32,900 bases of DNA, taken from a virus. The translations under genes were made by a program, and so were the position numbers. Shown in pieces: positions 1 through 1,009 of the stretch. Each line of letters begins with the position of its first letter. Position 1 is the first letter of the stretch. The stretch spans positions 1 to 32,900 of IMG/VR virus record IMGVR_UViG_3300014203_000008; one strand, written 5' to 3'. The notes under the pieces were generated by a model that ran no database searches, was not told the origin of the DNA, and was given only the letters and a program-made list of their open reading frames with translations.

Positions 1-123
1 AATTCAATAAATGTTTTTACCGTCATAGTATCTTTGTCAACATTAATTTCATGGTCCTTTGCAAAAGACTTTCTTCCCATTTCACACGAGCCTGTTAATA
101 TATGATGCCACGAGAAGAACTCG
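1..123. repeat. Terminal direct repeat, copy A (identical to 32778..32900). Marks circular closure or terminal redundancy, giving a 32,777 bp unit genome.
   Basis: Direct comparison: aattcaataaatgtttttaccgtcatag...cacgagaagaactcg is present at both window ends. Confidence 0.95.
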
Positions 124-593
124 CTACATGGATACTCTTTTTCTAAATCGTTAAAGTGGTTGATAAATTTAGAAATTCGTTCTTCTTCTGGCATATTATC
201 AAATAATTTTTCTGTCATTGATTCCATTGCTTTTCTTAATGTTTCGCCATGTGCAAATTTATTATTTTGTTTTACAACAAAGCAAGGTTCTTGTGTTAAA
301 TCTTTGTTTAAAATAAAACCACTTGCAACATTATATTTTATATTCGTAATCACAGTTTGAACATTATCAATCATTACAATTTTTTTACTATTTATTGATT
401 TTAAGCCATAGCCATAGACAGAGCCAGAGCCATAGCCAGGGCCAGAGCCAGAGCCAGAGCCAGAGCCAGAGCCAGAGCCATCGCCATAGCCATAGCCATA
501 GCCATAGACAGAGCCAGAGCCAGAGCCATAGCCAGAGCCAGAGCCATAGCCAGAGCCAGAGCCAACTTTCAAAAATTCTTCTATTTTATCCAT
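1..593 (-). CDS. N-terminal 197 codons of a 217-aa protein that wraps across the genome junction and ends at 32717. It has a 10-aa N-terminus, a 53-aa Gly/Ser/Tyr low-complexity tract, and a globular C-terminal domain of unknown function.
   Basis: ATG at 593..591 overlaps the stop of the upstream gene. The frame is open to base 1 and, through the 123-bp overlap, continues to a TGA at 32719..32717. Manual translation: MDKIEEFLKV-GSGSGYGSGSGYGSGSGSVYGYGYGYGDGSGSGSGSGSGSGPGYGSGSVYGYG-LKSINSKKIVMIDNV...FFSWHHILTGSCEMGRKSFAKDHEINVDKDTMTVKTFIELTENSYNGHVIKNLKKELNL. It is absent from the ORF track because it runs off the window edge. Confidence 0.75.
   Translation of the reverse strand, partial: MDKIEEFLKVGSGSGYGSGSGYGSGSGSVYGYGYGYGDGSGSGSGSGSGSGPGYGSGSVYGYGLKSINSKKIVMIDNVQTVITNIKYNVASGFILNKDLTQEPCFVVKQNNKFAHGETLRKAMESMTEKLFDNMPEEERISKFINHFNDLEKEYPCSEFFSWHHILTGSCEMGRKSFAKDHEINVDKDTMTVKTFIE
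405..563. repeat. Imperfect hexanucleotide tandem repeat (GCCAGA/GCCATA)n, about 26 units, inside the CDS above.
   Basis: gccatagccatagacagagccagagccatagccagggccagagcc... On the minus strand this reads GGC-TCT / GGC-TAT (Gly-Ser / Gly-Tyr). Confidence 0.95.
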
Positions 594-877
594 ATCTTAA
601 CCCCCTCAATAGATTTAATTGCTTTTTCTGTGCATGGGATAATTTCAATAACACCCATAATTTGAATTTCATCAACAATTACAGTAAATTTGCAATTTTC
701 TGGTTTAGATGTTCCATCTTTCGCTAGTTGTGAAATACTAGCAGCACCATCCCAGTAAAAAATTCTTCTGCAATCTTTTAATACAACTTCTTGCCCATCT
801 TTTTCTGCTAATGTTCCAAAAAATACACCTGCTCTGTCTGCTCTTACAATTACTTTTTCTCCAATAAATTTTTCCAT
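581..877 (-). CDS. Hypothetical 98-aa protein, first gene of the junction cassette. Contains an RIFYWDGAAS motif; no function can be assigned.
   Basis: ORF track. RBS AAAGGAGAAAAA lies upstream of the ATG, and the gene follows a consensus-like promoter. Confidence 0.7.
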   Translation of the reverse strand: MEKFIGEKVIVRADRAGVFFGTLAEKDGQEVVLKDCRRIFYWDGAASISQLAKDGTSKPENCKFTVIVDEIQIMGVIEIIPCTEKAIKSIEGVKIWIK

Positions 878-918
878 TTTTTTCTCCTTTAACTATGTTT
901 TGTTTACTTGTTATACAT

Positions 919-947
919 ACTATATCATCATAAAGCATAATTGTAAA
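919..947 (-). promoter_or_regulatory. Sigma-70-type promoter for the junction cassette: TTTACA-17 nt-TATAGT.
   Basis: The reverse complement reads TTTACAattatgctttatgatgaTATAGT. The -35 is at 942..947 and the -10 at 919..924. Confidence 0.55.
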
Positions 948-954
948 TAGATAT

Positions 955-980
955 ATTGTACTTTTATTGTACTTTTACAA
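955..980. promoter_or_regulatory. Operator-like repeat ATTGTACTTTT ATTGTACTTTT ACAA, starting 7 nt upstream of the -35. A copy of the 16-mer is also found at 29805..29820.
   Basis: attgtacttttattgt occurs at 955..970 and at 29805..29820, each exactly 7 nt from a -35 hexamer. TTGTAAA (941..947) and TTTACAA (974..980) form an inverted pair. Confidence 0.5.
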
Positions 981-984
981 ATAC

Positions 985-1009
985 AAAAAGAACGCCATTT
1001 CTGACGCTC
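985..1009 (-). terminator. Rho-independent terminator. Its 25-bp sequence is repeated at 32525..32549.
   Basis: Minus-strand RNA GAGCGUC-AGAAAU-GGCGUUC forms a 7-bp stem with two G-U pairs, followed by UUUUU. It lies just after the stop at 1034. Confidence 0.6.

Follow-up and report, generated by a model that had tools for sequence, protein, structure and literature searches.

A putative two-gene module in phages of many bacterial phyla: a predicted Sm-like barrel protein paired with a Gly-X repeat polypeptide

The IMG/VR virus record IMGVR_UViG_3300014203_000008 was analysed from position 1 to 32,900 (hereafter the window, meaning this whole stretch of 32,900 nucleotides (nt)). It carries a cassette of three small genes, which encode a protein of the Pfam family DUF6948 (gene 1), a protein with a tract of alternating glycine residues, (Gly-X)n (gene 2), and a small helix-turn-helix (HTH) protein (gene 3, ORF54). 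Judged by sequence comparison, the core of the cassette is a two-gene module, genes 1 and 2, present in phages of many bacterial phyla. The gene pair appears to be undescribed and to map onto no known system; the layout of the cassette itself is ordinary. In the literature searched, no paper on DUF6948, the pair or the repeat was found, and the pair is not mentioned in a comparative paper on the phiPLPE group of phages.

The pairing was assessed in 141 DUF6948 loci from viral and bacterial collections, 131 of which were assessable. A locus was counted as paired when a (Gly-X)n open reading frame (ORF) of at least 12 amino acids (aa) started no more than 200 nt downstream of DUF6948. Such an ORF followed DUF6948 directly in 122 of the 131 loci, many of which are mutually related. 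The paired loci comprised 89 with the tract only and 33 with an additional C-terminal domain (C-domain). As a control, upstream DNA (320 kb) contained a tract in 4 out of 135 loci and far-downstream DNA (110 kb) in a single locus. Conversely, DUF6948 precedes the C-domain gene wherever upstream DNA exists, and the two genes overlap by 13 nt in about 68 of the 73 C-domain loci with upstream DNA. In Bacillota- and Bacteroidota-type loci, the polymer is located between a short N-terminal helix and the 150-aa C-domain, whereas the inspected phages of Gram-negative hosts encode a free polymer of 70-140 aa. DUF6948 homologues with 37-46% identity are present in cultured phages of Iodobacter, Ralstonia, Pectobacterium, Dickeya, Vibrio, and Chlorobiaceae. 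In the cultured phages inspected, the next gene encodes 73-137 aa of almost pure (Gly-Ser/Tyr/Asp)n without a C-domain. Such tract-only partners are CDS0035 of Pectobacterium phage Sabo, the 'fibroin heavy chain-like protein' of Ralstonia phage NK-7, and an ORF of Iodobacter phage phiPLPE (L102:1164-1409), which is unannotated in GenBank. Gene 25 of the Chlorobiaceae phage CV-1-33 (L104:2786-3031) is annotated as a protein reading AMAMAL..., which is probably a frame error in calling the tract. Among the hosts given in the genome records are Neisseria, Moraxella, Pectobacterium, Bacteroides, Prevotella, Lachnospiraceae, Chlorobiaceae, Sulfurovum, Planctomycetaceae, and Conexibacter, as well as metagenome-assembled genomes (MAGs) of Paceibacterota and Methanobacteriaceae.

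The tract is frequently mis-annotated, being missed, called in a wrong frame or labelled 'fibroin' or 'lamprin'. Labels found in databases on members of the tract family are 'fibroin heavy chain-like', 'Lamprin', and 'ribonuclease inhibitor'. The alternative frames of the tract read poly(Ala-Leu/Met) or poly(Arg-Leu/Phe), and gene callers can choose wrongly among them.

The window begins and ends with the same 123 nt. It is therefore a circularly closed phage genome of 32,777 bp (or one with terminal redundancy), and gene 2 continues at position 32777, not at 32900. All long ORFs are located on the minus strand. In the order of this strand, the unit consists of a terminator, a box of two 11-bp repeats, an extended −10 promoter, three coupled genes, and tandem terminators. 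The features are as follows:

985..1009, minus strand: upstream terminator, copy 1 of a 25-mer (8-bp stem, GAAA loop, U5)
955..976, minus strand: two tandem 11-bp repeats, 7 nt upstream of the −35 box; candidate regulator or UP-type box
919..947, minus strand: extended −10 promoter of the sigma-70 type, TTTACA-17-TGaTATAGT
877..581, minus strand: gene 1, 98 aa, DUF6948
593..1, then 32777..32717, minus strand: gene 2, 217 aa, crossing the circle junction
1..593, minus strand: residues 1 to approximately 197 of gene 2 (N-terminal helix, tract, and most of the C-domain)
405..563, minus strand: (Gly-Ser/Tyr)n tract, aa 11-63 of gene 2
32717..32777, minus strand: C-terminal end of gene 2
32720..32556, minus strand: gene 3 (ORF54), 54 aa, HTH_17/TIGR01764
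32525..32549, minus strand: downstream terminator 1, copy 2 of the 25-mer
32503..32524, minus strand: downstream terminator 2, GUUGC-CUAC-GCAAC followed by U6 (hairpin at 32524-32509)
32450..32478, minus strand: promoter of the next unit (Cro-like HTH_3 gene, then DnaD-like gene), 11/12 plus TG; border of the cassette, not a member
32778..32900, no strand: assembly duplicate of nt 1-123 (circular closure)

The original prediction had described this unit as an insulated, possibly recombination-delivered moron with a layout like that of anti-CRISPR (Acr) and anti-CRISPR-associated (Aca) genes. Every element it listed, namely the 25-mers, the promoter, the repeats, the three ORFs, and the tandem terminators, was recovered at its position on the minus strand, including the identical 25-bp terminator on both sides (exactly two copies, none expected). 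The interpretation was partly supported: it holds for the layout and for the mosaic borders described below, but not for the Acr-Aca reading.

All three genes are coupled in translation: gene 1 overlaps gene 2 by 13 nt, gene 2 shares ATGA with gene 3, and the Shine-Dalgarno sequences of genes 2 and 3 each lie within the preceding gene. The cassette forms an ordinary, discrete transcription unit for the host RNA polymerase (sigma-70 type), insulated by intrinsic terminators. As in a moron, it has its own promoter and terminators. The base composition across the cassette is genome-like except for the tract. A nucleotide search of window positions 1-2300 against GenBank phages gave a single weak match.

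Gene 2 encodes a 10-residue N-terminal helix, a 53-residue alternating Gly-X tract (25 Gly, 15 Ser, and 9 Tyr), and the 150-aa C-domain. In the AlphaFold (AF2) model, the predicted local distance difference test score (pLDDT) was above 90 for the C-domain and approximately 33 for the tract, which is disordered. Foldseek comparison of this model with the PDB yielded nothing significant (best E = 0.29), and comparison with BFVD only uncharacterised or mislabelled viral proteins. No match to the C-domain was found in Pfam, PHROGs, NCBIfam, or PADLOC. A match of gene 2 to TrAA12 was discarded as a low-complexity artefact below the cut-off. For the C-domain, 705 homologue clusters were obtained at 90% identity and 1,106 at 50%. 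None of the 1,106 relatives, which were obtained by a profile search of 1.84 billion representative proteins, carries an informative fused domain, and the longest relatives differ by longer degenerate Gly-rich N-termini only. In a distant C-domain homologue with 28% identity from the Riemerella phage vB_RanS_CRP6 (L100:3309-3917), the Gly-X tract is replaced by BspA-type leucine-rich repeats. The second gene upstream in the same phage (L100:2866-3162) encodes a protein of 98 aa with DDDDLPF at its end, similar to the C-terminal tip of the bacterial single-stranded DNA-binding protein (SSB).

The position X of (Gly-X)n is occupied by Ser, Tyr, Asp, or Asn in approximately 90% of cases. The tract of the window uses GGC for every Gly and forms an island of 59% GC in a genome of approximately 33% GC. 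Nearly throughout any single tract, one Gly codon is used; it is usually GGC, even at a genome GC content of 28-40%, and GGC accounts for 68-92% of the Gly codons in tracts. Some lineages use GGA only or GGT only, and the Ser codons vary between TCT, TCC, AGC, and AGT; the G-X pattern is kept throughout. The tract length differs in 47 of 63 pairs with C-domains of at least 95% identity; irrespective of this length, the reading frame of the tract always continues that of the conserved domains on either side. Since the codons vary while the G-X pattern and the frame are kept, selection acts on the Gly-X polypeptide. The uniform codons within a tract reflect repeat expansion and contraction; in view of the GGC bias, a secondary nucleic-acid constraint may act on the tract as well. 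Contigs often end inside or just before the tract, as was observed for L010 (the same phage as in the window, 99.95% identical) and about 15 further loci (e.g., L035, L044, L046, L109, and L136). The (Gly-X)n repeat systematically breaks short-read metagenome assemblies.

Gene 1 matches DUF6948 with E = 2.6e-28 and no other Pfam family. DUF6948 comprises 4,312 homologue clusters, the best 120 of which are 70-100% identical. The AF2 model of gene 1 (pLDDT 90.4) contains five strands, and the top 50 Foldseek matches in the PDB were all Sm/LSm proteins or Sm-fold subunits (template modelling (TM) score 0.5-0.75, probability 1.0, best E = 2e-4). DUF6948 is therefore predicted to be an Sm/LSm-like beta-barrel, the assignment to the Sm proteins being by fold only. 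A profile search of PDB sequences with DUF6948 gave chance-level matches only (E > 0.5), and neither the sequence motifs Sm1 and Sm2 nor sequence homology to Sm proteins was found. A metal or iron–sulfur site formed by three invariant Cys residues was considered and dropped, as these residues are not kept in the homologues of Proteobacteria and Chlorobi and are not conserved outside the Bacillota-type sequences. Because of the unconserved Cys residues and a net charge near zero, we claim neither a metal site nor RNA binding for DUF6948. The structure predictions proposed earlier for the products of both genes thus yielded an Sm-like barrel for gene 1 and a confidently modelled C-domain without a PDB match for gene 2.

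In the window, the cassette is flanked on the recombination side by genes for an Erf-like annealing protein, DUF1351, RusA, SSB, and an Mre11/SbcD-like exonuclease, and on the replication side by Cro-like, DnaD-like, helicase loader, and methyltransferase genes. The neighbours in Bacillota-type loci encode a Sak4-like annealing protein, an SbcC-like nuclease, Holliday-junction resolvases, a replisome organizer, a DnaC-like loader, and methyltransferases. The broader locus set adds RecT and SSB, and the cultured phages add Erf and RecE/Bet. The context of the pair is early DNA metabolism, a type of region in which anti-defence genes are found as well. In relatives, the pair occurs elsewhere, inside replication operons and without insulation of its own. 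In L009 (DUF6948 93% identical), it follows a G39P-like helicase loader inside the replication operon.

We tentatively favour, with a confidence that falls somewhat short of an even chance, a co-translated complex or scaffold of Sm-like barrel and Gly-X polymer which functions in phage DNA replication and recombination. Translational coupling would deliver the barrel protein and the polymer together. The barrel, which is probably oligomeric, may then bind the polymer, and the complex might act as a scaffold or higher-order assembly while phage DNA is replicated and recombined. If the pairing is functional, it represents a widespread early module of phages with thousands of protein clusters and with named hosts that range from Neisseria and Pectobacterium to Bacteroides, Clostridia, and a bacterium of the candidate phyla radiation (CPR). 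Several points weigh against this explanation. The physical interaction of the two products is deduced from coupling and co-occurrence only, and none of the three proteins has a function that homology would reveal. The Sm-likeness is that of a predicted model with modest Foldseek E-values (2e-4 to 4e-3), and the net charge of approximately zero does not imply nucleic-acid binding. Because of the relatedness of many loci, the locus counts given above are not independent. Finally, most neighbours in the broader set are small unknown ORFs, methyltransferases, and anti-repressors, and the context therefore fits host takeover or anti-defence equally well.

A further explanation is unlikely. Here, the Sm-like oligomer would nucleate or cap a silk- or FUS-like Gly-Ser/Tyr/Asp polymer and thereby build a fibrous or condensate compartment in the infected cell. 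Replication and recombination of the phage would be organised by this compartment or concealed by it from the nucleases and sensors of the host, and rapid expansion and contraction of the repeat would tune the length of the tract. If true, the compartment would be the bacterial-virus counterpart of granules formed by LSm proteins and low-complexity domains.

It is possible, if rather unlikely, that the pair is a host-takeover or anti-defence module of a type other than Acr-Aca. The Gly-X polymer would then decoy or jam a conserved host machine (AAA+ protease, nuclease, or replication sensor), and DUF6948 would keep the polymer soluble or deliver it. Glycine-rich tracts are known to make AAA+ unfoldases slip. 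The location in an early-type region with small unknown ORFs, DNA methyltransferases, anti-repressors, and Lar- and T7 gp5.9-like genes is consistent with such a role, as is the very fast turnover of the tract, and the spread of the pair over many host phyla suggests a universal host target. However, DUF6948 is, by the identity of its best 120 clusters, far more conserved than usual anti-defence proteins. Furthermore, genes 1 and 2 have no match in the PADLOC defence library, and the pair stands most consistently beside recombination and replication genes.

The borders of the cassette bear on its proposed origin as a moron. The 25-mer AAAAAGAACGCCATTTCTGACGCTC occurs exactly twice in the window (985-1009 and 32525-32549); its chance expectation is 0 (100 shuffles, up to 3 mismatches allowed). 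On the minus strand, each copy folds into an 8-bp stem with a GAAA loop, followed by U5-6, and copy 1 with its flanks reaches −14 kcal/mol (z = −5.2). The terminator at 985..1009 closes the preceding unit, which consists of a 61-aa ORF and the Mre11/SbcD-like exonuclease gene. Close relatives have the variant AAGACATCAGAAATGGTGTCTTTTTT at the same joint with compensatory changes in the stem, which supports a structural (terminator) role. The exact 25-28-mer was also found singly in two other contig groups (L012/L013/L015 and L014/L016), the flanks of which are otherwise unlike the window. In each case, it stands at a gene end, with a promoter or ribosome-binding site next. None of the 185,579 reference bacterial genomes scanned contains it; an origin from a host genome is therefore unsupported. 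The 25-mer is a portable terminator that marks module joints and is not specific to the cassette. Its single occurrence in two groups of otherwise dissimilar contigs speaks against the reading of the cassette as an anti-defence moron. An interpretation as a CRISPR repeat or mobile-element end was dropped, since there are two copies only, 1.2 kb apart, with ordinary terminator geometry.

Several joints of a terminator followed by a promoter are present in the genome, for example at 7678/7606, 1009/947, and 32549/32478, and another lies near 29860 before the promoter at 29797. The joint consisting of the 3′ end of the exonuclease gene, the terminator, and the box is followed by different genes in related phages. 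DUF6948 comes next in the window phage, a 218-aa gene and then DUF6948 in L011, and a DUF3560 gene in L009; such joints are therefore places of module exchange. The 218-aa gene of L011 (L011:1171-1827; a Sedimentibacter MAG contig, DUF6948 96% identical) is located between the conserved promoter and DUF6948 and has no match in PADLOC or NCBIfam.

That the cassette is a dispensable moron (superinfection-exclusion or toxin-antitoxin-like), captured between the 25-bp copies and losable by recombination between them, is quite improbable. Its own promoter and terminators, the 25-bp direct repeats that flank exactly this unit, and the mosaic borders would agree with it, and the Erf-like annealing protein of the phage could use such short homologies. 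On the other hand, the scans of viral and metagenome sequences with the 25-mer recovered the same phage and contigs otherwise unlike the window, and they yielded neither a cassette-less variant nor an empty site. Moreover, relatives hold the pair elsewhere in replication operons without insulation, and the base composition is genome-like outside the tract. Of the recombination-delivered moron suggested originally, the mosaic borders (L011, L009) remain; the empty site is missing and the contents are widely conserved. The insulation likewise applies to this genome, with its own promoter and intrinsic terminators, and not in general.

An even smaller probability is assigned to the (GGC-NNY)n array as a cis-acting DNA or RNA element, with translation being incidental; such an element might, for example, be a hotspot of recombination or the RNA to which the Sm-like protein binds. 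The share of GGC among the Gly codons despite the low GC content of the genomes and the sharp GC island formed by the tract would fit, and Sm-like proteins classically bind RNA. Sm proteins prefer U-rich and not GGC-rich RNA, however, and the amino acid pattern persists through GGA-only and GGT-only lineages and switches of Ser between TCN and AGY, in frame with the conserved flanks at any tract length.

The cassette promoter TTTACA-17-TGaTATAGT scores 10/12 plus TG and is kept in L011. Upstream of it, the tandem 11-mer AAAAGTACAAT (minus strand) is present in two exact copies at 955-976, which are direct repeats. The box CAATAAAAGTACAAT is also located 7 nt from the −35 box of a second promoter (29805-29819) and is nearly invariant across five promoters of three related phages. 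The box shared by the two joints suggests a common regulator for at least two units. The box was also considered as the −10 box of a further promoter and dropped, because no acceptable −35 box is present at the right spacing in the cassette promoter. At the second joint (29769-29860), a hairpin with a GCAA loop and T5 is followed by the CAATAAAAGTACAAT box, the −35 box TTGCTA, and the extended −10 box TGaTATAAT (29797..29769). Two intergenic segments of 50 nt (6231-6280 and 7578-7627) are 78% identical, and each contains a TATACA-17-TATAAT promoter plus TG; the latter segment is preceded by a GAAA-loop terminator (7678..7659).

Gene 3 (ORF54) belongs to the excisionase-family HTH proteins: it matches HTH_17 (E = 4e-10), TIGR01764 (35.6 bits, cut-off 28.8), and PHROG excisionase or regulator families (E = 2e-7). 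The winged-helix domain of excisionases (Xis) is present. No integrase gene was found beside ORF54 nor among the proteins scanned, a set short of the complete genome; the flanking genes are the tract gene and the Cro-like and DnaD-like genes, or a replisome organizer in relatives. The relatives of ORF54 comprise one cluster at 94% and one match at 43%, the strict E-value of one search possibly hiding weaker ones, and 0 of about 85 other loci have an ORF54 homologue adjoining the pair. In the nearest relatives, L098 and L099 (84-88% identical), the tract gene is followed by ORF54 and, 3 nt later, by the replisome organizer, without a terminator, a promoter, or a Cro-like gene in between. As ORF54 is not insulated in these relatives and the pair of L009 lies within the replication operon, the insulation is peculiar to the window genome and the unit belongs to the replication module. 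We think that the lineage-specific ORF54 is a DNA-binding regulator or a replication-module protein; it possibly acts at the conserved box. ORF54 also weakly matches 'mad1', a small HTH protein of the candidate MADS defence system (PADLOC, E = 4.6e-5), which is probably generic HTH_17 similarity.

In Acr-Aca loci, the cargo is what varies. The HTH gene of the window is rare and the presumed cargo genes are conserved, which is the reverse of this logic and argues against the Acr-Aca or anti-defence-moron layout proposed at the outset; an anti-defence role of a different kind may still apply to the pair. Binding of the HTH protein to the repeats at 955..980 had been proposed as a check. Their position does not appear to suit an Aca operator: they are direct repeats 7 nt upstream of the −35 box, and the same box occurs at the promoter 29797..29769. 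A weak inverted repeat (10 bp, 90%; arms 938-947 and 974-983, 26-nt spacer) was detected in AT-rich DNA with one arm over the −35 box. A genuine Acr-Aca operon, in which genes 1 and 2 inhibit CRISPR-Cas or another defence and the HTH protein represses the promoter via the repeats, is most improbable and appears largely refuted by the comparative data: the strong promoter, the two unknown proteins, the small terminal HTH, the terminator, and the arm of the inverted repeat over the −35 box fit, but the HTH is lineage-specific beside conserved cargo and leads into a replication gene without a terminator in relatives, the exact repeats are direct, upstream of the −35 box, and common to another promoter, and the arms of the inverted repeat stand 26 nt apart in AT-rich DNA. 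A layout of promoter, small ORFs, HTH, and terminator does not by itself predict Acr-Aca loci well.

Two further observations concern other parts of the genome. Inside the DnaD-like gene (31563..32249), four TGTTCACTTGTTGTTCA-like units with 11-nt spacing were detected at 31865-31914; they look like replication-origin iterons embedded in the initiator gene. A tRNA-Ile gene (anticodon TAT; 20740-20811, minus strand) is located between structural genes.

Compared with known systems, the cassette resembles Acr/Aca operons in its strong promoter, small unknown proteins, small terminal HTH (in this lineage only), and terminator. In contrast to these operons, it has an HTH that is almost an orphan and upstream genes with conservation across phyla; its direct repeats lie upstream of the −35 box with no clear operator over the core promoter, and relatives are without insulation. 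Aca families recur across diverse elements beside variable genes, whereas ORF54 does not. With phage morons and modular exchange, the cassette shares its own promoter and terminators, the same short sequence at borders and joints of dissimilar contigs, and the different genes that relatives have after the same joint. In contrast to morons, its contents are among the most widely conserved early modules seen here, and no empty-site relative was found.

Bacterial SSB consists of an oligonucleotide/oligosaccharide-binding (OB) fold, a disordered Gly-rich linker, and an acidic tip, and the adaptor SspB of a domain, a flexible linker, and a tethering peptide. Gene 2 is reminiscent of both: a long, flexible, Gly-rich stretch links its domain to a short peptide at the terminus, and its neighbourhood is one of replication and recombination. 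Its short helix stands at the N-terminus, which is the reverse order, an OB fold is absent, and the tip is not the SSB C-terminal motif. The resemblance is an analogy only. The strict Gly-X alternation of the tract resembles silk fibroin (GAGAGS/GAGAGY), and its palette of Gly, Ser, Tyr, Asn, and Asp is similar to that of phase-separating low-complexity [G/S]Y[G/S] domains of the FUS/hnRNP type. Unlike these, the phage proteins are cytoplasmic, 70-350 aa long, rich in Asp, and without homology to either group. An alternating Gly-X polymer with a conserved pattern and a hypervariable length is an unusual phage product. If the pairing is functional, its obligate coupling to an Sm-like barrel provides a testable handle in culturable phages such as Pectobacterium Sabo or Ymer, Ralstonia NK-7, and Iodobacter phiPLPE.

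Sm, LSm, and Hfq proteins are barrels that form rings and bind RNA. DUF6948 differs from them in the absence of the N-terminal helix, an extra helix between strands 3 and 4, a net charge near zero, and a sequence without similarity to those of Sm proteins. In eukaryotic members of the family, low-complexity tails are part of the protein or of a partner; examples are the GR repeats of SmD1 and SmD3 and the prion-like tail of Lsm4. DUF6948 is similar to this group in its predicted bent barrel of five strands and in its partnership with a dipeptide-repeat low-complexity polypeptide.

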